From Nitrosopumilus sp. b3 (GTDB lineage Archaea; Thermoproteota; Nitrososphaeria; Nitrososphaerales; Nitrosopumilaceae), in the NCBI RefSeq assembly GCF_014078525.1, contig NZ_MU078695.1, positions 125,174 to 157,173 of the forward strand: DNA of 32,000 nt, in the 5' to 3' direction. The notes below the pieces were generated by a model. The model did not search any database. It saw only the letters and a program-made list of their open reading frames with translations, and was not told where the DNA came from. Below, piece after piece: positions 5,273 through 18,910 of this stretch (position 1 is its first letter; each line of letters begins with the position of its first letter). A program made the translations under genes and the position numbers.

Positions 5273-5716
5273 ATGAAACGAGGTAGACCTACCAAAAATG
5301 ATGAAGAAAAGATCAAACAGAGAATTTTGGAATACTATGAAAAAGATATTTCGGCAACTGTTGCTGCAAAAGAATTAGGGGTTAACCCCAAAACAATTTA
5401 CAAACATTATAAAAATTGGGATGCTCAAAAATTAGGCATAGATGAAAAAGATTTTCTATCACGCATTAAAAATACAAAAGAAAGATCTATTCAATCTTTA
5501 GAGGAAGACATTATTTCATTATCCAAAGAAATTGACAGGATCGAATTTCTAATGGAAAAGTCATTACAAAATGGAAATATTTTAGAATATGAAAAATTAG
5601 CAAAATTGAAACTAAAGACTATGAATCAAAGAACAAAAACCATATCTGCAAAAATCAATCTTGTAGGAGCACCAACTGCAGATATTTTGATTAATAATGA
5701 GGGGATGTTAGCATGA
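5273..5716 (+). CDS. Terminase small-subunit-like HTH protein
   Basis: 147 aa. N-terminal helix-turn-helix ('ISATVAAKELGVNPKTIYKHYKNW') followed by a coiled-coil-like region. Sits immediately upstream of TerL with a 4-bp ATGA overlap, the classic TerS-TerL order. Confidence 0.5.
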   Translation: MKRGRPTKNDEEKIKQRILEYYEKDISATVAAKELGVNPKTIYKHYKNWDAQKLGIDEKDFLSRIKNTKERSIQSLEEDIISLSKEIDRIEFLMEKSLQNGNILEYEKLAKLKLKTMNQRTKTISAKINLVGAPTADILINNEGMLA

Positions 5717-7488
5717 CGTATAATTTAGTACAATGGAAAAAATCACATGAAAAATTAGCAAGAGTGTATTTGAAGAAAATTAACAAACTAAATCCACTTC
5801 CAATAGACATTATGGATTGGATCAAAGTTGCAAGACCAAAAGTCGAAAATAAGGAGCGAGAATTTCTTACATGTCCATTTTGGATTCCAATTTACAACGA
5901 TCCTCACAATTATCAGATGATAATTGGTGGGCGGCAAATATACAAATCAACTGCATGTACGGATTTTATCGCATGTGAGGCAACTTCGCATCCAGGAATT
6001 CAAGTATGCTATGTAACTCACGACCAAGGAAGTCTATCAGCATTTTCTAAACAAAAATTAAAGATTGGGACATTTTTAGTAAATCCAATTCTTTCAAAAT
6101 ATTTACGCAATCCTGGAAACATAGGAGAGATTTCACTAAAAAATAACAGTACAATCTATCTAGTAACTGACAACTATCAATATCGGCATTTAGAGGGAAA
6201 ATCACCCTCATTATGCATTCTAGATGAAGCTCAATACCAAGATGTAGAATATTTTGGAAGAGTGCATCAAACAATGATGGCAACAAAAGGTAAAGTGAAG
6301 GTCTTTGGGATTGGAGGAGAAGCTGGAAGTCCTTATGAAAAATTATGGAATGAGACAAATCAAATGGAATGGTTTTATGACAATCCAGAATGGCGAGAAA
6401 ATTTACAGTATGATCATAAAGGGTTGATTAAAGATCAGTATCTTGAAGAGTTGTTGAGGGGAAAATGGATTCCACAAAATAAATCTGCAGAATCATTTCA
6501 TGGGTATCACATACCACAATCAATTTTTCCCACAATTCCATTGACAAAACAAGATGCAATTGAAAAATACAAGATTCATCCTAGATTTTCAATTGAATAC
6601 CAAAAAGAGACATTGAAAGATTCAGAATTTAGATCACATGTAACTGGAACGTTTTACAAAAGTCCACATAGACCCATCACAAAAAAGATGATAGATGATT
6701 GTACAGAGTATTATAGATATTTACAACTGTTAAAAGAAGATGAAGTTAAAAAACTGAAAGAAACATTTGGTGATGAGATAACTATTGCAATGGGGGTTGA
6801 TTTTGGTTCAGGCGCTTCCAGTTTTACAGCAATATCAATTATAATTTTATGACACAAATCAAATAGAATACAGATTGCATTTATAGAGAAAAGGCATCCA
6901 GAGAATCAATTAAAACAAGCACAATATATTGCAGATTTATTTGAAAGATTTTCTTGTGATATTGGAGTTGGTGATTTGGGTTATAGTGCAAATCAAGTAA
7001 AAATAATACAAGAGGGAGGATTTTCGGTAGACTCAGGAGAGGCATTCAAAGGTGTAACAAATAATAAATTTTTTGGGTGTCGTACTATTTCAGATAACAC
7101 AAAACCCATTCAAATTTTTGATGAAACAACGGATGAGCACGGAGACCAAGTTGGTAGAATCCAGATAGATAAAACATCAAGCATAGAACTTTTGATTGAA
7201 AGTATGGAGAACATAGTATTTCATCCAGCATACCATAAGGATAAAAATAGAAGCAGGGCAAAGTTAATCATCCCATCAAAGTACGATTATGAAATAGATT
7301 TTCTCTTAACGGATCTTAATAACATAACTCGCAAAGACATTCAAGATATGGAGAAAATTATTTCAGATCCTCGTCAGCGTCCAAGAAAAGAATACAACCA
7401 CCCACCAGATTCTGTAATGTCTTTGATTTATGGAATAGTAGCATTAAAGGTGAAAGATCAAACAAAATGGCACTGGGTGAGCGGATAA
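5713..7488 (+). pseudogene. Terminase large subunit (TerL) of a head-tail virus, interrupted by one in-frame TGA at 6850-6852
   Basis: ORFs 5713..6852 and 6976..7488 are in the same frame. My translation of 6853-6975 has no further stop (HKSNRIQIAFIEKRHPENQLKQAQYIADLFERFSCDIGVGD). Walker A-like 'GGRQIYKST', Walker B 'LCILDEAQ', and RNase H-like nuclease Asp motifs 'MGVDFGSG', 'IGVGDLGY', 'HPPDSVMSL'. Confidence 0.75.
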
Positions 7489-7509: not shown

Positions 7510-7535
7510 AGTATCTATTGTATGCATACTATACT
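7510..7535. promoter_or_regulatory. Candidate operator copy 1 (AGTAT-N5-GTATGCATAC-T-ATACT) upstream of nurA
   Basis: The perfect 10-bp palindrome GTATGCATAC is at 7520-7529, preceded by AGTAT with a 5-nt spacer and just downstream of TATAAA (7505-7510). The same architecture occurs at 14191 and 15331. Confidence 0.5.
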
Positions 7536-7657
7536 CATATTTCTTAATACGGGTTCCATTAGAGATTTTTCCATGAAACAAGCTAAAACTCTGATAACTA
7601 ACAGTCAGATTATTACTCTAGGAAAATATCATACCACTCAGAGGGGAGAAATTACAC

Positions 7658-8755
7658 ATGAATGAAGATCCAGTAAAAAGTATGATTGCAGAATTGGGTG
7701 CTCATCTTTCACAAAAAGAGCATTCAGATATTGTTTTAAACAATGGGAATGGAAAGCAGTTTCTCATTGCACCTTCAGAGTTTGTTGAAATAAAATCTAC
7801 AGATGCACCACGTAAGATTGCCTTTGTTGATGGGGGTGATGGTCCATTAGAAGAGTCACCAAACTTTTTAATCACAATTAATCGGGTGTACTTTTCATTG
7901 TTCCAGGGGAAAAATAGAATAAAACCTAAAGAGAATCCACGAGTTCAGTTCTTCTCTTCTGTGACGTCAAATATTCAAACCGAAAATGGTAAAAAAATAG
8001 TTAGTTATGATACAAAGTTATTTCCTCACACTACGGAGGATAAAAAATATCTCCCAGCAGAGTCTGATCTGACTTCAAACACAGAGAGTACTACAGTTTT
8101 GCAAGGCTCAAGATTGAATTCATTAGGAAGACGATTTGCTGAATGGCAATTGGCAATTCATGTTGTAGAGTCAGAACTTGAGAAAGGAGACATGATAGTT
8201 ATGGATGGGTCTCTGCAGACTAATTTTAAAAATGAACTAAAATATGCAAATAGATTGTATGATTTGGCAATAAGTAAGGGAGTAATTGTGTGTGGTTTGG
8301 CAAAGACTAGTAGATTAATTACAGAGTCGGGTCACCCGTTACTTGCACGAGTTGCAGAGATTGCTGAAGACGTTCCATTTGGAAAATGGTATGTCAAAGT
8401 TGCAGAAGAGGTTTCAGGGGATGATAGAGGGTTTATGCTTGCAGTAAAGTTTCATGAAAAATCAAGATACGTATTTAGATTTGAGATTCTTCGTGAACAA
8501 TTTTCTTCTATGAGTCCTGATGAGTTGAACTCAGTTCTTGCTAGTTTGGTTGAGAATTCCCAGGATGTAGCCATGATTGGCTATCCATATGGGGCAATTG
8601 ATGCAGACAGATTTGCTCAAGTTAGGCGTGATGAGTTGGGAATGTATCAAGGGTTTATTCTATCAGAGAAACTCAGAGACCCTATTTGGAAGAGGCTGCA
8701 AAAATATTCTGCTAGTCTGTCAGCTCATGATACACTGAATGGAGTGACTAGTTGA
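7658..8755 (+). CDS. nurA: NurA 5'-3' nuclease
   Basis: 365 aa. Catalytic-type motifs 'IAFVDGG' and 'MIVMDGSL' plus 'GLAKTS' fit the NurA domain. First gene of the nurA-herA-mre11-rad50 cluster, with a purine-rich GAGGGGAG upstream of the ATG. Confidence 0.8.
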
Positions 8756-11590: not shown

Positions 11591-14000
11591 TAGCATCATT
11601 ATTGATAACATTAGAAGTTATGAGCACGAAGAGGTAGAGTTTCCTCGAGGGATATCTTTGTTTGAAGGAGATATTGGTTCTGGAAAATCAACTGTACTCA
11701 TGGCAATAGAGTTTGCACTGTTCGGTTTGGGTTCTCAAAAAGCTGAGAGTTTACTTGCAAAAAAGTCTGAAAATGGAAGTGTTATTTTGGATTTTTCAGT
11801 AGACGGTGAAAAATATGAAATTAAAAGAACGTTGCTGAGAAAAAAATCAGGAGTCAATCAAGATCCTAAAAATTCCTGGATAAAGATTGATGGCGAGAAA
11901 GAACCATTATCACCATCTGAACTAAAACAACGAGTGTTACAGATATTAAAATTCAACGAGCCAGCAGATCCTAAAGCTGAGAGTAAAATATTCAGATATG
12001 CTATATTTACGCCTCAGGAAGCCATGAAAGAGGTGCTTTTTGACTCTGCAAAGAGACTAGAGACTATTCGTAAAGCCTTTGGGATTGAAGATTACAGTAT
12101 TGCACACTCTAATGCACGTGAAGTACTTACTGAGATCAAAGCAAAAGCAAGAGTGTTTCAAGAAAGATTCAGTAATATTTCAGAATTAGAGTCAGAGATT
12201 ACAGAATCAAATAAAGGGATAACAGAGACAGAGAAAGTAATTTCTAAAACCAAAGAACAACTTAGTAGTTTAGAGAATAACGAAGTACAAAAAACCAATG
12301 AACTCAAAGAGTTGCAGGCAAAAAACAATGAAAAAATAAAACTAGAATCAAAAAAAGAAAACATTACAGATAAGATAGAATCTGCAAAACAAAATGTTGA
12401 AAAGATAGAGCAAGAGTTTGCAGAAATTGAATCAGAATTAAAAGAGAATAATGAAAGATTTGAAAAATTGATGAGTGTAGAAAAACCTCAAACAGAGAAA
12501 AGCATACCAGATATTATATCTGAAATAAAAAAACTTCAGGAGATTAATGACAAGAAAATAAGACTAGAGACAGAAAAAGAAACAATTACAGATGATCTTG
12601 TAGAACTAAAAGAGAGTTTAGGTGAGAAGGTAAATTCAGACAAGTCAGTTTTAGAGAAATCTCTGCAAGATTTAGAAGAAGAGAAAAAAGGTTTGGAGAA
12701 ATTCTCTGATGAGATAAAGCAACAACAAGATAAAATCAAAGAAGAGCAAATCCAAAAAAATACGCAGAAAAAATCATTAGAACAAGATATTTTAGAATTT
12801 TCTAAACTTGGAAATGCATGTCCTACATGCAAACAAGAAATTACTAAAGAGCATCATCATGCCCTAGTTGATGAAAAACAAAAGCTAGTTAACAGTCTTG
12901 AAAAGGAAATAAAAACAGTTACAGATTCATTTTTTGAATCAAGTTCAAAATCAAAAGAGATTGAATCAAAGATAGATTCCTATGAAGAAGAAATCTCAAA
13001 GATAGAAAAAATCATTCCAGGAATAGAAGAATTTATTGAAAAATCCTCAAAATTAAAAGAAATTGAGGCTGATTTGCAAGAAATTACACCCCCAGACACT
13101 AAAGAGTATGGCGAGAATCCCATAGAGTTTCTATCTGAACTAAAAGACAGAGTTTCAGAGTATAGAAATGCACAAGAGCAGTTACAACAGATAGCACAAA
13201 GAAGACAGAAGATTCAAGAAAAAATAGAATCAGATCAGTCAAGTGCAAATACGTTGTTATCAGGTATTAAAGAAAATGAATCAAAATTAAAAGAAATTGA
13301 AAAACAGTTAGCCAAATTTGGAAGATTGGAAGAAAAAGTACAATCTAAAGAAGATGAACTAGGTGAAATCAGGAAAAAAATTGCTCAAGCATCAGGAATT
13401 ATTGCTGCATCTCAAGAAAAATTAAACAATGAACAAGTCAAAATTTCTCAAAATGAACAAAAAATTTCTGAATCAAAACAATGGGAGGAAAAATACAAGA
13501 AATTTACTCAGTTCCAGGAATGGTTAGAATCATTTTTTATTCCAACCATATCACAGATTGAAAAACAAGTATTATTGTCAATATTGCAGAATTTCAATGA
13601 GACATATACCAGATGGTATTCTATTCTAATTGAAGATCCAACCAAAGAATCCAGAATTGATGAGAACTTTACACCAATTGTGAATCAAGACGGATATGAT
13701 CAAGAGATTGGATTTTTGTCAGGAGGTGAAAAAACAAGTATTGCATTAGCATATAGATTAACATTAAACTCTCTAATGAGAAAAGAGACAGAATCAATGA
13801 AGTCTAATTTATTAATTTTAGATGAACCTACCGATGGATTCTCTAAGAATCAATTGGGAAAAATTAGAGAGTTACTTGATGAATTAAAATCAGAACAAAT
13901 CGTACTTGTCTCTCATGAAAAAGAGCTTGAAACTTATGTAGATAATATTTTTCAAATTTCAAAAGAAAATGGGTTATCAAAAATTTTAAGAATTAATTAA
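11580..14000 (+). CDS. rad50: Rad50 ATPase (SMC-like, zinc hook)
   Basis: 806 aa. Walker A 'GDIGSGKST', a long E/K-rich coiled coil, zinc hook 'CPTC', ABC signature 'LSGGEKT', Walker B 'LLILDEPT'. The start overlaps the mre11 end by 11 nt. Confidence 0.9.
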   Translation: MILNSIIIDNIRSYEHEEVEFPRGISLFEGDIGSGKSTVLMAIEFALFGLGSQKAESLLAKKSENGSVILDFSVDGEKYEIKRTLLRKKSGVNQDPKNSWIKIDGEKEPLSPSELKQRVLQILKFNEPADPKAESKIFRYAIFTPQEAMKEVLFDSAKRLETIRKAFGIEDYSIAHSNAREVLTEIKAKARVFQERFSNISELESEITESNKGITETEKVISKTKEQLSSLENNEVQKTNELKELQAKNNEKIKLESKKENITDKIESAKQNVEKIEQEFAEIESELKENNERFEKLMSVEKPQTEKSIPDIISEIKKLQEINDKKIRLETEKETITDDLVELKESLGEKVNSDKSVLEKSLQDLEEEKKGLEKFSDEIKQQQDKIKEEQIQKNTQKKSLEQDILEFSKLGNACPTCKQEITKEHHHALVDEKQKLVNSLEKEIKTVTDSFFESSSKSKEIESKIDSYEEEISKIEKIIPGIEEFIEKSSKLKEIEADLQEITPPDTKEYGENPIEFLSELKDRVSEYRNAQEQLQQIAQRRQKIQEKIESDQSSANTLLSGIKENESKLKEIEKQLAKFGRLEEKVQSKEDELGEIRKKIAQASGIIAASQEKLNNEQVKISQNEQKISESKQWEEKYKKFTQFQEWLESFFIPTISQIEKQVLLSILQNFNETYTRWYSILIEDPTKESRIDENFTPIVNQDGYDQEIGFLSGGEKTSIALAYRLTLNSLMRKETESMKSNLLILDEPTDGFSKNQLGKIRELLDELKSEQIVLVSHEKELETYVDNIFQISKENGLSKILRIN

Positions 14001-14127
14001 TAATTGATTATTTAAAACAGTGTTTACAATTTAACGAATTGGAAATTTATCATTTTCAAATATCTATAAACATGAATTTTGTTCCTACTGATCATTTCAA
14101 GTGGATATTAAATCAGATACAGGGGTA

Positions 14128-14134
14128 TTTTTTT
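14128..14134 (+). terminator. Oligo-T tract, possible archaeal terminator of the rad50 transcript
   Basis: First run of at least 5 T (T7) downstream of the rad50 stop. Archaeal termination commonly uses oligo-T. No experimental support. Confidence 0.3.
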
Positions 14135-14190
14135 AATATGTAAAATTCCGAGTCTATTCCAGATAAATTTCCAAAAATAGAAAATTAAAT

Positions 14191-14220
14191 AGTATTCAAA
14201 GTATGCATACTATTGTCATG
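14191..14220. promoter_or_regulatory. Candidate operator copy 2 (AGTAT-N5-GTATGCATAC) upstream of a TATA-like element and micro-ORF
   Basis: Palindrome core at 14201-14210. The 30-bp block matches 15331-15360 at 26/30 positions. A TATA-like 'cataataatat' (14224-14234) lies about 25 nt before the ATG at 14253. Confidence 0.5.
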
Positions 14221-14252
14221 TTTCATAATAATATCAAATTCAAACCTAAAAT

Positions 14253-14333
14253 ATGCAAAAACAAGCAATGTATCCAAGAATTATCAGAGAATTCGAAGAG
14301 GATAGAGATGAAGAGCCACTCTTTTATTCCTAA
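14253..14333 (+). CDS. Micro-ORF (26 aa, MQKQAMYPRIIREFEEDRDEEPLFYS), paralog of 15393..15515
   Basis: Not in the ORF track because it is too short. It shares the YPRIIREF core with the 40-aa ORF at 15393. The three nucleotide differences in those 8 codons are all synonymous. Spacing from the TATA-like element suggests a leaderless transcript. Confidence 0.45.
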   Translation: MQKQAMYPRIIREFEEDRDEEPLFYS

Positions 14334-14363
14334 AATGAAGAGCATTTCACACCTTAGGAGAAA

Positions 14364-14591
14364 ATGAATAGGGCAAGAAATCAATCTATCAAAAGAACAG
14401 CAAGAAATTATTGATTCAAAGAAAAACACATCGTAGTTTCAAATCCAGGAACTGGAAAGACCACCACATTATCTCTCAAAGAAATAAAATTACTAACAGA
14501 CGGAGTAAATCCTGAAGATATTCTATGTATCACGTTTACTGAAAAAGCTAAAAAAGAAATGTTTAATGAGATTTATGATAATTCAAATTAA
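14364..14591 (+). pseudogene. N-terminal relic of a UvrD/PcrA-type superfamily-1 helicase (frameshifted and truncated)
   Basis: Frame 1 reads 'INLSKEQQEIIDSKKNTS*' and frame 0 continues 'KHIVVSNPGTGKTTTLSLKEIKLLTDGVNPEDILCITFTEKAKKEMFNEIYDNSN*'. Together these give the UvrD motifs Q, I (Walker A, GTGKT) and Ia (TFT..A..EM). The frame switch is at the A-run near 14419-14426. The gene ends after about 75 codons and overlaps the 3' end of the convergent regulator by 9 bp. Confidence 0.55.
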
Positions 14592-15329
14592 AAATTCGGC
14601 AGCATTTTTGCCCTCTTCAGTAATTTTTATCCAACGATTCCTACCAATCTTTTCAATCTCGATAAACTTCCAATCTTTTTCTAATGGTTCAATGATATTT
14701 TTATCTAAACTTGCAAATCTAGCTTGGGAGTGATTTGATTTTTCAGCATTAACTGTAATGATTCCTTTCTCTTCTGTAATTTCTGCCATCTCTTTTTTAG
14801 TTAGTTTTTGATTTTTATGTTCATGAACTATTTTTAATGCATCTAATAATTTTGGTTTTGGTGTTTGAATCTCATATGTTGGTAATGGAATTGTATCTTT
14901 GATTCCAAAGGATTGTTGTTTACCCTCAAATGCTGCATACTTTTCAGGTTCTGCATAAAATGGTTTTAGATTTTCACAGTGTTTGAGTACCATACATGCC
15001 ATCATGCATGCGATTGCTTGGATTTTAGATCCTGATGCGACATTGACATAGATGTAGTTATTTTTTTCTTCCTCAATGATATCTTTGATTGATTTTATTG
15101 CTTTAAACAAACTCAATCTATCAGCATATGCAATCTTTACTTCTACACCGAGTTTTTTGCATTCTTTTTTTATTTTCTCCAAGTATGGTGCTGAAAGATC
15201 AGTAGTACGATTGTCATGTGATATCAACCACAATTTGTCAGCCTTTGTCTGCTTGAGAGGTATGATGATTCGGTCTACTTCAAAACCTAAAGGGGCAATG
15301 TGAACTCGAAATGTGGCTAGATTAGTCAT
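14583..15329 (-). CDS. Csa3-like regulator: N-terminal CARF-like Rossmann domain plus C-terminal winged helix-turn-helix
   Basis: 248 aa. The N-terminal pattern 'RVHIAPLGFEVDRIIIPL', 'DKLWLIS', 'YIYVNVASGSKIQAIACMMA' is collinear with my recollection of Csa3 ('YFVTMGFNETFLLRLL', 'DSLVIVV', 'IISDLTMGMRMINTL'). The C-terminus 'LTKKEMAEITEEKG...GRNRWIKITEEGKNAAEF' looks like a wHTH. The call is by architecture only; no search was done. Confidence 0.55.
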   Translation of the reverse strand: MTNLATFRVHIAPLGFEVDRIIIPLKQTKADKLWLISHDNRTTDLSAPYLEKIKKECKKLGVEVKIAYADRLSLFKAIKSIKDIIEEEKNNYIYVNVASGSKIQAIACMMACMVLKHCENLKPFYAEPEKYAAFEGKQQSFGIKDTIPLPTYEIQTPKPKLLDALKIVHEHKNQKLTKKEMAEITEEKGIITVNAEKSNHSQARFASLDKNIIEPLEKDWKFIEIEKIGRNRWIKITEEGKNAAEFLI

Positions 15330-15330
15330 T

Positions 15331-15373
15331 AGTATGTACAGTATGCATACTATTGTGATGCTATATAATAATT
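15331..15373. promoter_or_regulatory. Candidate operator copy 3 plus strong TATA box in the divergent regulator/small-gene intergenic region
   Basis: AGTAT-N5-GTATGCATAC with the core at 15341-15350, followed by 'tatataataatt' (15362-15373). That 12-mer is identical to the one upstream of nirK. ATG 15393 lies about 26 nt from the TATA centre (leaderless geometry). The palindrome lies between the TATA and the regulator ATG at 15329. Confidence 0.55.
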
Positions 15374-15392
15374 TCTATGCCTAAGAAACACC

Positions 15393-15515
15393 ATGAATCA
15401 AACAAAAACAATTCAAAATGAAGGATTAAACTCTGGAAATCTTTTCTATCCCAGAATTATCCGAGAGTTCGATGAAAAAGACGAACCAATAATGTATGGA
15501 GGAAGATTTGATTAG
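15393..15515 (+). CDS. Micro-ORF (40 aa, MNQTKTIQNEGLNSGNLFYPRIIREFDEKDEPIMYGGRFD)
   Basis: Paralog of 14253..14333 (YPRIIREF core, acidic DE(E)P-[LI]-[FM]-Y tail). First ORF of a tightly packed plus-strand operon. Confidence 0.5.
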   Translation: MNQTKTIQNEGLNSGNLFYPRIIREFDEKDEPIMYGGRFD

Positions 15516-15517
15516 AA

Positions 15518-15682
15518 ATGAAAATTACTAGAATTCTTCCAAAGTTTCTTGCAAAAACATACCAGGAAGAAGATTTGAGACGTGCAGAAATCCAGCTACA
15601 ATATCACAAAGGTATGATCAGAGTTTGGGAGAAAAGATGCAATGAAGGGCGACAAGAATTACAGAGGTTGAATCAAAAATGA
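15518..15682 (+). CDS. Small hypothetical protein (54 aa, MKITRILPKFLAKTYQEEDLRRAEIQ...)
   Basis: The ATG is 2 nt after the previous stop, and its own stop overlaps the next ATG (ATGA at 15679-15682). Predicted helical and basic. No recognisable family. Confidence 0.4.
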   Translation: MKITRILPKFLAKTYQEEDLRRAEIQLQYHKGMIRVWEKRCNEGRQELQRLNQK

Positions 15683-15891
15683 AACTCGGTAAAATAATCC
15701 AAAACCTTAACATGAAAAATATCAATCAAGGAGTTGACATCTTCAATAAAGCTGTTCAGGATTTCGGAGATTCTATGGATTCACTGAATAAAGAAATGTC
15801 AGATGATATTGAAAAATCAAACAAGGAATCCAAAATTAGAGAGAAAAAGAACAAGGAAAATTTAGATAAAATTTGGGGGAAAAGGAAATGA
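15679..15891 (+). CDS. Small charged hypothetical protein (70 aa)
   Basis: ORF-track entry. K/E/D/N-rich and helical. ATGA overlaps at both ends suggest translational coupling. Confidence 0.5.
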   Translation: MKLGKIIQNLNMKNINQGVDIFNKAVQDFGDSMDSLNKEMSDDIEKSNKESKIREKKNKENLDKIWGKRK

Positions 15892-16283
15892 TCAAAACTG
15901 AATTTTTTGATGATAGTTATAACAAAGTTGAAGAAAGTACAGCAGAGATTATAGTTCAGTCAATTTTTGATAAAGATGGTAATTTACAAAAAAAGATAGA
16001 ATGGACTCCAAAGAAAAAGACAGGTTATTCAAGAACTACTCAGGTAAATGATGATATTAGATACGAATTTCTTTCACAAGATGTAAAAAATCATTATTTA
16101 GATAATGTGCTAGGAATTCAAAGGGCAATTGATTTACTTTGGAGATATCACAGTCAAGAAGAAAGTATTTCTCAAAAAAGAAAAATTCTAAGTTCCATAT
16201 TAAATGGATATAGTAAAATCAACTTTGCAATAATGAGTTTTGATCATGAATTAAAACGAGAAAAAGGAGGTAGTGGGTACTAG
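15888..16283 (+). CDS. Hypothetical protein (131 aa from ATG 15888; the ORF track gives an alternative TTG start at 15873)
   Basis: ATG 15888 forms an ATGA overlap with the upstream stop and is preceded by 'aaagga'. No family recognised. Confidence 0.55.
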   Translation: MIKTEFFDDSYNKVEESTAEIIVQSIFDKDGNLQKKIEWTPKKKTGYSRTTQVNDDIRYEFLSQDVKNHYLDNVLGIQRAIDLLWRYHSQEESISQKRKILSSILNGYSKINFAIMSFDHELKREKGGSGY

Positions 16284-16576
16284 TGTCTGAAACTCTCAAA
16301 GATACCCACTCTAAGAGCCTATCAGAGGCATTTGTAAATTCTTTTGGAAGTTATCCAATTGGGTATGGATTAGGAATAGTTATTTTACCATTATCAGTAG
16401 GATGGATTCAAGAAGACCCGCTAACTGTAAATCTAATAATTACTGGGATTTATGCAACAGTTTCATTTGCCAGGACCTATTTTTATCGTAGAGTATTTGA
16501 AAAATTTGGAATTGATGATAATTTCATCAAACTAGGAATCAAAGGAGTAAAAAAACTCAGGAGATTCAAAAAATGA
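16283..16576 (+). CDS. Small two-TM membrane protein
   Basis: 97 aa. The GTG start shares one base with the preceding TAG. Two hydrophobic helices ('IGYGLGIVILPLSVGW', 'LIITGIYATVSFA') are followed by a basic tail 'RTYFYRRVFEKFG'. The pattern (S..E...N...G ... S..R.Y..RR.F) resembles a small membrane protein family I recall from phage genomes. Unverified. Confidence 0.55.
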   Translation: MSETLKDTHSKSLSEAFVNSFGSYPIGYGLGIVILPLSVGWIQEDPLTVNLIITGIYATVSFARTYFYRRVFEKFGIDDNFIKLGIKGVKKLRRFKK

Positions 16577-16782
16577 CTGAATCAAAACCATCATGTCCTA
16601 ACTGCAATAGTGAGAATGTTGCATTTATCCTATGGGGATATGTTGGAGACATGCATTCAATTGAAGAAGAGTTAGAAAAAGGAGAGATTGTTTTGGGAGG
16701 ATGTATTGTATCTAGTAACGATCCTAAATGGAAATGCAATGATTGCCACCACAGATGGGGGGTTAGAGACGATGATGAATGA
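16573..16782 (+). CDS. Zinc-ribbon protein (CPNC...CNDC)
   Basis: 69 aa. 4-bp overlap with the upstream gene. Two CxxC pairs flank 'GEIVLGGC'. Acidic C-terminus. Confidence 0.6.
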   Translation: MTESKPSCPNCNSENVAFILWGYVGDMHSIEEELEKGEIVLGGCIVSSNDPKWKCNDCHHRWGVRDDDE

Positions 16783-17094
16783 AGAAAGAAGATCCATTTT
16801 TGATTTCAACAATCCAATAGATACTTCATTACCGATTTCAGGCAAAATATACTGTGCATTCAAGGCAAGATTAAATGATTTTTTCGGATCCTGATGTTTT
16901 TCCTTTAAGAGAAAATTTTCCAGATGTTTTATCAAGAACCCATCATCTAAATTCCAAGCATTTGCAAAATAGGCAATATCTGAACATAGGCCATTATGGT
17001 ACTTGATGGAATTCCCATAGTTTTTACGATCACATGATCGTAAGATACTACCTCAAAACAATATTATGATAATATTTATTTAGAAAGGAAAATT

Positions 17095-18060
17095 TTGTGT
17101 TGTATGTTTACATCTGCTTCTAAAACAGCATTTGTTTTTTCATTTATTGTTCTAATCAGTATGGGTATGTTGTTAGGGCATACGCATGCTCAAACAAATT
17201 TTGATTTTGGTGATGCTCCGGATGGCGGTCCTACGGGATATTCTACAGGTATTCTGTTAGGAGGTGCACAATTACCTCAAACTGGCAACTTCCCTTCATT
17301 GTTAGCAAATGACGGTGCTAGAACTATTACTCAATCTGCCACTTTGGGTTCTGCATCTACGTCTGAAAGTGATGCTAACATTACTGATGCAGACGCTGAT
17401 GATGATGGTCTAATTCAATTTGGAATTCAGCTAATATCGATACCAGCAGTAGGTACGCTTAACGTAGAGGTCGATTCTGTATCTGGCGGAACTTATTATC
17501 TCAACGCAGTAGCTGATCTGAATCAAGATGGTGAATGGGGCGGATTTGGAATTAATGGTGAGTCTGAATGGATTGTCCAAAATGAAATTGTCCCAATTTC
17601 ATCTGGTATTTTTACAAGCCAACCTTTTGCATATGGAAGTGGTAATCGAATCCCTGAAGATACATGGGTTAGAATAGCACTGACTAGTGAACCTGTCCCA
17701 AATAACTGGGATGGTACTGGTGTATTCAATGATGGTGAGATTGAAGATCATTTCATCCACGTTGATTTTGCAGGTAACTCTCCTCCTACTCCTCCTACTC
17801 CTCCTGCAATCATTATCATCGTTATCATAATTATCATAATTTTAATAATTATCATAATTCTGATAATCTTGATAATTATCTTTAAGATTACTTGGTTAAT
17901 TTGGATTGTTTTGGCCTTACTGGTAGTTGTGGTGGTCTTAGTTGTGATCGTATATGTGATTACAATTGAAATTACAATCTGTGATTCCATGTGCTATGAT
18001 GTACCTTCCAGTACTGTACCTCGTGAGAAGATTCCTTCTACAGAAATATTTGATGGCTAG
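17095..18060 (+). CDS. Secreted GEVED-domain-like protein with a PT linker and an extreme Ile/Leu/Val C-terminal membrane region
   Basis: TTG start and a signal-like N-terminus. 'FDFGDAPDG', 'ANDGAR', 'DADADDDG', 'ADLNQDGEW' and 'GEIEDHFIHV' match the pattern I recall for GEVED domains. These are followed by 'PPTPPTPP' and about 75 residues that are almost all I/L/V. Confidence 0.6.
   Translation: MCCMFTSASKTAFVFSFIVLISMGMLLGHTHAQTNFDFGDAPDGGPTGYSTGILLGGAQLPQTGNFPSLLANDGARTITQSATLGSASTSESDANITDADADDDGLIQFGIQLISIPAVGTLNVEVDSVSGGTYYLNAVADLNQDGEWGGFGINGESEWIVQNEIVPISSGIFTSQPFAYGSGNRIPEDTWVRIALTSEPVPNNWDGTGVFNDGEIEDHFIHVDFAGNSPPTPPTPPAIIIIVIIIIIILIIIIILIILIIIFKITWLIWIVLALLVVVVVLVVIVYVITIEITICDSMCYDVPSSTVPREKIPSTEIFDG
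17824..17877 (+). repeat. Six in-frame tandem copies of a 9-bp unit (ATCATAATT and variants) encoding III/LII triplets
   Basis: Read directly: atcataatt atcataatt ttaataatt atcataatt ctgataatc ttgataatt. Lies inside the poly-Ile segment of 17095..18060. Confidence 0.85.
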
Positions 18061-18140
18061 TCCTGAACAATTAGAGGATTATTTTTCTGAGTTTAGTAAA
18101 AGCGTGTTACTTTTTAAGATGGCACATCACAATTTCAGTC

Positions 18141-18728
18141 ATGGCAAACTGGAAGATTCTAGTCATTGCCGGTTTTGCAATAAACTTTCTAATCCCTTTA
18201 ACATTATGGACAAGCGGCGACTATGAGGGAAAGATAATACAAATTCCCCAACATGTAGAGTCACAACCAGTAACACTTGCACCAAAGGATTCCATAGAAT
18301 TAGTGTACTATCTTGATTCAGGGCAAATCCTTGGTTTTGGATTCATCGGTACTGCTGACAGAGTTACCCAACAAATGTTTGCAGCAGGAAGAGTTGATCT
18401 GCAAATAACAAACCACAACGGCCTTGACAATGGTCTGGAAAAAATCATGCCAACTGAATGCGAGTATCCAACAACGATTGGAACTGGACTTGGATGCTTT
18501 AGGACTACTGTTCCCTCAAACTATACGTTTACACTGACAAACAACAGTCCATTTGATCTTACCATCCCTGCAGTCCAGTTTGGCAAGCTTGATGGAGTGC
18601 TTGTAACTGAATTTGATGATACAATGGATGATGGAGACATTCTACCAATGTTTGCATATGAGATACTCGTTATAGTTTCAGCAGTACTGATCGTTACAGG
18701 TTTTCTTTTAAGATATTATAGAAAATAA
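18141..18728 (+). CDS. Hypothetical membrane-anchored extracellular protein
   Basis: 195 aa. N-terminal hydrophobic segment (ILVIAGFAINFLIPLTLW) and a C-terminal TM plus basic tail (ILVIVSAVLIVTGFLLRYYRK). Confidence 0.5.
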   Translation: MANWKILVIAGFAINFLIPLTLWTSGDYEGKIIQIPQHVESQPVTLAPKDSIELVYYLDSGQILGFGFIGTADRVTQQMFAAGRVDLQITNHNGLDNGLEKIMPTECEYPTTIGTGLGCFRTTVPSNYTFTLTNNSPFDLTIPAVQFGKLDGVLVTEFDDTMDDGDILPMFAYEILVIVSAVLIVTGFLLRYYRK

Positions 18729-18910
18729 CTCAAAATTTAAGACAACCGTCATAAAATCACGCACCAAACGGGGGCGTTCTATTTTTACTGATTGTCGATA
18801 AACTAGTTAACGCTGATTTCTATTCTTGGAATCCTTTTTTCAAACCATTATAAGCACTCAGACGGTTGGGTTAGTTTTGATAATGGTCAGAATAATTAAT
18901 TGTAAAAATT

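Follow-up and report, generated by a model that had tools for sequence, protein, structure and literature searches.

The closest described relatives of the system reported here are Csa3a and Csa3b of Sulfolobus and the haloarchaeal protein HFX_2341, regulators that join a CARF-like domain to a winged-helix domain. HFX_2341 of Haloferax mediterranei acts as a repressor (PMC11434293), and Csa3a binds the nurA-mre11-rad50-herA promoters in Sulfolobus (PMC5587795). We analyzed a 32,000-nucleotide stretch of the Nitrosopumilus sp. b3 genome (contig NZ_MU078695.1, positions 125,174 to 157,173; "the window" below, with coordinates counted from its first letter). It encodes a regulator of this same two-domain architecture and, next to it, two copies of a module made up of an operator, a TATA-like box, and a micro-ORF (a very short open reading frame) whose peptide has the core YPRIIREF. 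As with Csa3a, palindromic sites lie before a nurA-herA-mre11-rad50 operon, where the window regulator would bind; a difference from Csa3 and HFX_2341 is that the window holds no CRISPR-Cas. We propose that the micro-ORF is a real gene, tied to the regulator, whose product acts in trans, and we give this overall reading a probability of about 0.55.

Transcription factors and sensors can be modulated by small proteins encoded beside them, as anti-repressors and the bacterial MgrB, which provides feedback on PhoQ, show. Like MgrB, the micro-protein is tiny, co-regulated by and genetically coupled to a regulator, and feedback is plausible. It differs in having no sequence relationship to MgrB-type peptides, in being archaeal with leaderless geometry, and in having a viral copy of its motif, and its binding to the regulator is only proposed. 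Taken separately, neither CARF-like regulators with a winged helix-turn-helix (wHTH) domain nor small regulatory proteins are new. What has no earlier description in the literature we searched is that such a regulator is paired across a whole family, at constant spacing, with a conserved and probably leaderless micro-protein gene that has been duplicated together with its promoter and whose motif recurs in viruses; the one paper found on HFX_2341 and DUF6293 mentions no partner micro-protein for Csa3 or HFX_2341.

An initial annotation of the window, made from its letters without database searches, had reported two modules of operator, TATA-like box, and ATG. Direct reading of positions 13900-15900 together with the list of open reading frames agrees with it. 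The parts are:

14190..14211 (no strand assigned): operator of copy 1, a TAGTAT half-site and then the perfect 12-bp palindrome AGTATGCATACT at 14200-14211.
14222..14234, plus strand: TATA-like box of copy 1, TTCATAATAATAT, AT-rich, 31 nucleotides before the ATG, the same spacing as in copy 2.
14253-14333, plus strand: micro-ORF 1 (micro-protein gene copy 1), 26 amino acids, EEPLFY subtype, MQKQAMYPRIIREFEEDRDEEPLFYS.
14583..15329, minus strand: regulator gene, 248 amino acids, with an HFX_2341_N CARF-like Rossmann domain and a DUF6293_C winged helix; Csa3-like.
15330..15351 (no strand assigned): operator of copy 2, TAGTATG followed by the palindrome AGTATGCATACT at 15340-15351, between the regulator start codon and the TATA box.
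15362..15372 (no strand assigned): TATA box of copy 2, TATATAATAAT, 31 nucleotides from the micro-ORF ATG and 33 nucleotides from the regulator start codon.
15393-15515, plus strand: micro-ORF 2 (micro-protein gene copy 2), 40 amino acids, long form, MNQTKTIQNEGLNSGNLFYPRIIREFDEKDEPIMYGGRFD.

In both copies the palindrome starts 22 nucleotides before the start of the TATA box, which in turn starts 31 nucleotides before the ATG, and another ATG begins 2 nucleotides past the micro-ORF stop codon. A repeat finder aligned the 58-nucleotide upstream blocks (14178-14235 and 15318-15375) at 78% identity and the 29-nucleotide coding cores (14271-14299 and 15447-15475) at 86%. Within the eight codons of YPRIIREF there are three differences (CCA/CCC, AGA/CGA, and GAA/GAG), each of them synonymous, as had been noted at first. 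The operator scans covered the source genome and one nurA-type pattern. The 17-mer AGTATGCATACTATTGT around the palindrome occurs exactly twice in this 1.79-Mb genome (the reversed control, not at all), and the two peptide copies in the window are the only ones that the genome has. We rejected a third perfect palindrome (contig 1:112972) as a chance occurrence, as it lies inside a 565-amino-acid gene and has no TATA context.

The peptide belongs to a family. In a six-frame search of about 400 Nitrosopumilaceae genomes, 96 matched at E ≤ 1 and about 70, the carriers of the long form [FY]PRIIREF[DE][DE]..DEPM.YG, at E < 0.01, and nearly all of the homologues lie in frames that stay open for 25-50 codons. 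With a profile, run over genomes of the whole class, 71 of 223 genomes of the family matched, versus a single marginal match in 177 genomes from other families; in GTDB terms the micro-protein does not extend beyond Nitrosopumilaceae (Nitrosopumilus, Nitrosarchaeum, Nitrosotenuis, and Nitrosotalea). An exhaustive hidden Markov model (HMM) search of 1.84 billion public proteins gave 105 clusters (at 50% identity), almost all of 24-77 amino acids, and these clusters of predicted small proteins occur in metagenome-derived collections. The extracted long-form peptides follow the consensus [FY]P[RK]IIREF[DE][DE]x(1-3)DEPM.YG behind a variable N-terminus, which splits into conserved subtypes (for example, MKSITLLHKSHQVGEKPT…). 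Family members are polar, acidic proteins of 24-45 amino acids, and their sequences contain no signal peptide, hydrophobic N-terminal stretch, transmembrane segment, or DNA-binding domain. No Pfam-A, NCBIfam, or PHROGs family matches the peptide at E ≤ 0.1, an ESM Atlas search gave no usable match, a word-indexed homology search with the 40-amino-acid protein returned only the window's own copy, and a literature search for the motif string found no paper that contains it.

The initial annotation had argued from the synonymous differences that the peptide itself, and not just a DNA site, is under selection. It named as counterevidence a lack of further homologues, or frameshifts and stops in homologous loci that would mark conservation at the DNA level only. 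We found dozens of homologues in open frames, with saturated synonymous sites and retained residues. Among 38 distinct nucleotide versions of 16 core codons, the mean proportions of nonsynonymous and synonymous differences were pN = 0.095 and pS = 0.80 (saturated), a contrast that is inflated because the cores were chosen by their amino-acid motif. Even so, free third positions are not expected of a DNA element: entropy by codon position in these 38 sequences was 0.28, 0.12, and 1.19 bits, and both core arginines are encoded by AGR as well as by CGN codons. Relatives with GC-rich genomes keep the peptide (…AAFYPRIIREFDDGPDEEPMLY…) with quite different codons, which further supports selection on the protein. 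We conclude that the two micro-ORFs are paralogous genes of a real, previously unannotated micro-protein family; that they code for protein is, on this comparative evidence, very nearly certain.

Two kinds of apparent fusion were rejected. Open frames of 186-302 amino acids around the motif in GC-rich genomes are GC artifacts, with an internal methionine just upstream of the core, and P0104 is an unrelated repeat protein. In one GC-rich relative (genus g2; L067:3191-4096), about 15 tandem in-frame copies of the nine-residue unit AARAAGPLT lie just upstream of the core; these repeats are absent from the paralogous locus in the same genome (L066).

Genera that apparently lack the peptide have, at the same position, an ORF of 22-28 codons that ends in …[VF]YP[KR][VI][KR]S[VI]FE[ENDY], for example …YPKVKSVFEE. 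Judging by organism names, carriers of this short form are Nitrosotalea and other Nitrosopumilaceae. Named carriers include Ca. Nitrosotenuis chungbukensis MY2 for the long form (L265), and Ca. Nitrosotalea bavarica SBT1 and Nitrosotalea sp. TS for the short form (L305 and L288). What the long and short forms have in common is Y-P-[RK]-[IV]-x-x-x-F-[DE]. At short-form loci L075-L084, the micro-gene and regulator gene are flanked on one side by a gene of 247 amino acids for a short-chain dehydrogenase/reductase (SDR)-type protein and one for a 72-amino-acid membrane protein, and on the other by a convergent gene of 180 amino acids (MSGTEILRNDH…) and one of 279 amino acids; there the pair looks like core genome, not an island.

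The N-terminus of the window regulator matches PF19810 (HFX_2341_N) over the full profile (6.6e-36), as well as Csa3_N (1.1e-8) and CARF_Card1 (4.9e-5), and its C-terminus matches PF22665 (the DUF6293_C winged helix; 3.6e-25). Against the HFX_2341 equivalog model NF051475 it scores 19.9 bits, far under the cut-off of 500, so by sequence it is a distant relative of haloarchaeal HFX_2341 and not its orthologue. The regulator was detected in 202 of 401 genomes of the family, which makes it more widespread than the long-form peptide, and nearly every genome with the long form also has the regulator. It lies divergently, roughly 65 nucleotides upstream of the micro-ORF, in about 22 of 29 loci viewed over 3 kb, and locus after locus the ATG of the micro-ORF is at a fixed distance of about 68 nucleotides from the regulator's start codon. 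Among 78 regulator loci from named organisms, 56 have a recognizable core within 330 nucleotides (19 long and 37 short); among the others, some have a PIN gene in first position, some keep only a leader remnant, and a few have an unrelated micro-ORF. In the leader-only loci (L080, L083, L226, L297, and L303, from Nitrosarchaeum and Nitrosotenuis-like organisms), just the N-terminal leader (MKTITQLQKNHEMSEN*) is left, followed directly by a DUF7220 gene; these loci have kept the promoter and the regulator and lost the core. In the regulator tree, the type of micro-ORF tracks the regulator clades, which speaks for co-inheritance only and not for co-evolution. Neither this fixed divergent pairing nor the short form nor the viral occurrence of the motif (described below) was part of the initial annotation.

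The promoter block AGTAT-N5-AGTATGCATACTAT-N7/8-TATATAATAAT-~20 nt-ATG is nearly invariant from Nitrosopumilus to Nitrosotenuis, versus regulators that are only 50-60% identical across those genera. By its geometry, the TATA box at 15362..15372 probably serves both divergent genes. Judging by archaeal promoter geometry, the micro-gene's mRNA is probably leaderless, because the ATG comes about 20 nucleotides after the TATA box; transcription that begins at the ATG or beside it would lead one to expect the constant distance of about 68 nucleotides between the ATG and the regulator's start codon. The palindrome between the TATA box and the regulator's start codon would suit autorepression, and its conservation at fixed spacing in the putative target promoters suggests that the regulator binds it. 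One of these putative target promoters is that of the nurA operon:

7510..7549, plus strand: related operator AGTAT-N4-TGTATGCATACT (operator 7510-7531) with a TATA-like box, before nurA-herA-mre11-rad50.

The nurA-type operator is conserved in loci L038 and L046. About 67 nucleotides behind it is a second, probably leaderless micro-ORF (7574-7666, plus strand) that overlaps the start of nurA; its stretch …ITNSQII[TS]LGKY is kept in L046 (in a shorter frame) and in L038 (with a GTG start), and conservation there is mostly at the DNA level.

Viruses also carry the motif. When IMG/VR was scanned with the peptide profile, the motif turned up inside proteins of 402-508 amino acids that are encoded directly after the TerL gene (PF03237, phrog_2), on contigs of 22-65 kb, and three further viral clusters, with KKKPTMFPRIRREFEDEKDEDPMVYDNKTASWESWLEK, came from the exhaustive HMM search. 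At least five clusters of tailed-virus proteins (P0001, P0002, P0087, P0095, and P0106; 155-508 amino acids) carry the motif KKKPTMFPRI[IR]REF[PE]DEK(D)EDPM[VI]Y (segment …FPRIIREFPDEKEDPMVY…), with whole-library E-values of 4e-6 to 4e-4. The carriers have highly charged, low-complexity sequences, match no family, and hold the motif between repeated SWExWLEK motifs; a homologue without the exact motif (L205) has a diverged version at the same place. The best named relative of the viral TerL is from a haloarchaeal tailed virus, and this relative, the 35% GC content, and the motif itself suggest that the viruses infect Nitrosopumilaceae. The regulator was not found in IMG/VR viral contigs, and therefore the module is chromosomal, not viral. 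Matches of a 14-mer of the operator in viral contigs (at least 119) were rejected as chance, as none of the 119 loci has the extended operator and TATA context. Two of the viral genes (L072:5260-6786 and L074:5947-7155, from UViG_3300024261_000095 and UViG_3300022933_000006), each directly after TerL, encode K/E/D-rich motif carriers of 400-500 amino acids with four to six copies of W-x-x-W-L-[ED]-K (as in SWESWLEK), and the viral protein may combine several docking motifs in modular fashion.

Mimicry of short linear motifs has been described mainly for eukaryotic viruses. The likeness here is that a host motif of about 20 residues recurs inside low-complexity, charged proteins of tailed viruses; the difference is that the host "motif" is a free-standing micro-protein. 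The occurrence of the same short motif in unrelated, disordered-looking viral proteins is what would be expected of a docking motif, and it points to a docking peptide that viruses mimic.

The arrangement we envisage is as follows. Ancestrally, a palindromic operator and a TATA promoter would have been used divergently by the micro-gene and by a gene for a Csa3/HFX_2341-type regulator. The regulator would bind the palindrome and so control its own gene, the micro-protein gene, and any downstream cargo; in the source genome and a few relatives, its control would extend to a helicase-nuclease gene and to the promoter of nurA-herA-mre11-rad50. Copy 1 would be a duplicate of the promoter-plus-micro-gene cassette that once drove the now-decayed helicase-nuclease. 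The peptide would work in trans through the docking motif Y-P-R/K-I/V-x-x-x-F-D/E, to which the long form adds the acidic tail DEPM.YG. Action in trans as a docking peptide is, in our view, probable. As to what the peptide docks on, our best guess, put forward tentatively, is the regulator itself, because no other genetic partner is invariant; the peptide would then feed back on operator binding as an anti- or co-repressor. The second candidate, which strikes us as rather unlikely, is a protein of DNA-end processing or replication; it is suggested by the nuclease-rich cargo and the viral copies.

Besides the inflated codon contrast, three observations weigh against our proposal. Some regulator loci have no recognizable micro-ORF: three of the leader-only remnants (L080, L083, and L226) and two loci with unrelated micro-ORFs (L213 and L214). 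Of the 101 genomes sampled from the genus, just 7 have the nurA-type operator, and no regulator was detected in one of the 7 (G259), so the link of the operator to the nurA operon is lineage-specific. Last, AlphaFold2 run on the peptide alignment predicts no secondary structure (mean predicted local distance difference test score, pLDDT, of 68), which would fit a peptide that is unstructured on its own and which we do not count as evidence.

Few archaea in oceans and soils are as abundant as the Nitrosopumilaceae, yet how they regulate their genes and defend themselves against viruses is poorly known. The micro-protein family, largely overlooked by annotation, comes with a conserved unit of operator, promoter, and regulator whose geometry is kept to the single nucleotide; the putative regulon includes a DNA-end-resection operon in some species, and the viral copies are a candidate case of motif mimicry. 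If our proposal is right, it would add a peptide-responsive branch to the CARF/Csa3 class of regulators and open a way to study how thaumarchaeal viruses cope with the nucleases of their hosts. A bolder form of it, which we regard as improbable, is that the micro-protein is the endogenous switch of a Csa3-like response to DNA breaks or of a nuclease response, docking on an end-processing nuclease or, where a nucleotide ligand would otherwise sit, on the CARF-like domain of the regulator, and that tailed viruses captured the motif into a disordered protein of the virion module to shut the response down upon infection. That would bring short-linear-motif mimicry into archaeal virus-host conflict, along with a CARF-like regulator controlled by a peptide.

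The best-surviving alternative concerns the genes around the module. The initial annotation had placed a decayed helicase gene behind copy 1 and a small-gene operon behind copy 2, and both are there:

14364..14590, plus strand: N-terminal fragment of a decayed UvrD-type helicase-nuclease, frameshifted and truncated against the regulator gene.
15518..16782, plus strand: variable cargo operon behind copy 2, five small genes of 54, 70, 136, 97 (DUF7220), and 69 (zinc-ribbon) amino acids.

The helicase fragment carries a UvrD-type Walker A and motif Ia and runs into the 3' end of the minus-strand regulator gene, and tblastn with it matches intact helicases at other loci. At locus L051, a 28-amino-acid gene (…EEPLFYARN) heads an intact UvrD+PD-(D/E)XK helicase-nuclease of 888 amino acids just after rad50. 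Copy 1 of the window (…EEPLFYS) is, by sequence, its orthologue, and we therefore regard it as a duplicated promoter-plus-micro-gene cassette whose cargo has decayed here. In the 16-kb neighborhoods that we viewed for 21 loci, the module is part of a variable island. In nine of the 21, the window included, this island adjoins nurA-herA-mre11-rad50, and in several of the nine its opposite boundary is a conserved set of cupredoxin, HEAT, and peroxiredoxin-like genes. Behind the micro-gene, the cargo ranges from nothing to small proteins, DUF7220, an MBL/RMMBL nuclease-like protein of about 495 amino acids, UvrD+PD-(D/E)XK helicase-nucleases of about 1020 and about 888 amino acids, an RNase_H_2-like exonuclease, and a PD-(D/E)XK protein.

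In view of such neighbors, the peptide might instead modulate, inhibit, or serve as an adaptor for an enzyme of DNA-end processing or replication, such as the UvrD+PD-(D/E)XK helicase-nuclease, NurA/HerA, Mre11/Rad50, a PIN or beta-CASP-like nuclease, or a PCNA or SSB hub; the viral motif, in a virion-module protein, would then neutralize the enzyme on entry. The richness of the cargo and surroundings in nucleases and helicases (HNH-HIT among them), the adjacency to rad50, the EEPLFY subtype directly before a helicase-nuclease (at L051 and, in decayed form, in copy 1), and the position of the viral gene after TerL all fit this, and acidic tails with a hydrophobic or aromatic end resemble protein-docking tails. 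However, the Nitrosotalea short form has no nuclease neighbors, only the regulator, which is the sole invariant partner across the family. We judge action on such an enzyme, not on the regulator, to be less likely than our proposal and at the level of an unlikely contender.

A cis-acting leader, whose translation would load or stall ribosomes for the downstream genes and whose released peptide would have no function, fares worse. There is precedent for leaderless short ORFs at the 5' end of operons, for example the mycobacterial cysteine-responsive leaders (bioRxiv 10.1101/834739). The micro-ORF is likewise the first, probably leaderless, short ORF of polycistronic transcripts, its stop codon is 2 nucleotides from the next ATG in both window copies, and a different, probably leaderless micro-ORF sits at the same spacing before nurA. 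The conserved part is the C-terminal stretch of about 20 residues, which includes a D/E/P-rich run, and such runs occur in some arrest or ribosome-destabilizing leaders. But the micro-ORF is often the sole gene. The short form is monocistronic at seven loci in Nitrosotalea and relatives, where its stop abuts the convergent 180-amino-acid gene, and the long form is the last co-directional gene at L039, L043, and L046; on these grounds a purely cis-acting role is unlikely. In about 6 of the 21 wide loci, the micro-gene comes second, after a PIN gene (PF01850) and behind its own GGAGG. Furthermore, purifying selection acts on the whole core of 10-20 residues, and not on a run of one sensed amino acid, and the same motif is found in the middle of viral proteins of 400-500 amino acids. 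The chances of the leader explanation are, in our view, slim.

Known classes of peptide are largely refuted by gene content, and we hold them very improbable. A type II antitoxin partnered with PIN might be suspected from the PIN gene in a minority of loci, and a secreted quorum- or arbitrium-type pro-peptide from the adjoining regulator; a third class is the precursor of a ribosomally synthesized and post-translationally modified peptide (RiPP), and the variable N-terminus and conserved C-terminus would also suit a known small-peptide class. Yet most loci have no PIN gene, the adjacent toxin that a VapBC-like pair would need, and where there is one it lies upstream of the micro-ORF; the peptide is too short and acidic for an antitoxin's DNA-binding domain. 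As for pro-peptides of the RRNPP or arbitrium type, the N-termini are polar, with neither a hydrophobic signal sequence nor a transmembrane segment, and the neighboring regulator is CARF-like plus wHTH, not of the tetratricopeptide repeat (TPR) type. No modifying enzyme or exporter is common to the variable neighborhoods, as a RiPP precursor would require. Among the functions that the initial annotation had listed, then, leader peptide (in many lineages the gene is monocistronic) and classical antitoxin have lost ground, and a regulatory peptide or anti-defense-like factor fits best. Least credible of all, and already refuted as far as sequence analysis allows, is an untranslated DNA or RNA element (an extended operator or 5' RNA structure): the adjacent operator/TATA block is indeed extremely conserved as DNA, but the near-saturated third positions beside invariant residues, the six arginine codons, the open frames, the motif's survival of the shift in GC content, and its recurrence in viral proteins with different flanks all speak against it.

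Two further regions of the window deserve mention. Upstream of the nuclease operon, a pair of genes at 5273-6852 encodes a 147-amino-acid protein with helix-turn-helix (HTH) matches only and a 379-amino-acid protein with no Pfam family; neither this pair nor the small cargo proteins behind copy 2 show similarity to the motif-bearing viral loci, and the pair shows none to the TerL of those contigs. On the rad50 side, positions 14000-18900 and the corresponding loci L034-L053 make up a hypervariable island across Nitrosopumilus and Nitrosarchaeum, with UvrD+PD-(D/E)XK helicase-nucleases, MBL/RMMBL, PIN, RNase_H_2-like exonuclease, Cas4-like PD-(D/E)XK, and HNH-HIT genes. This island could be a hotspot of defense or repair genes under the Csa3-like regulator.

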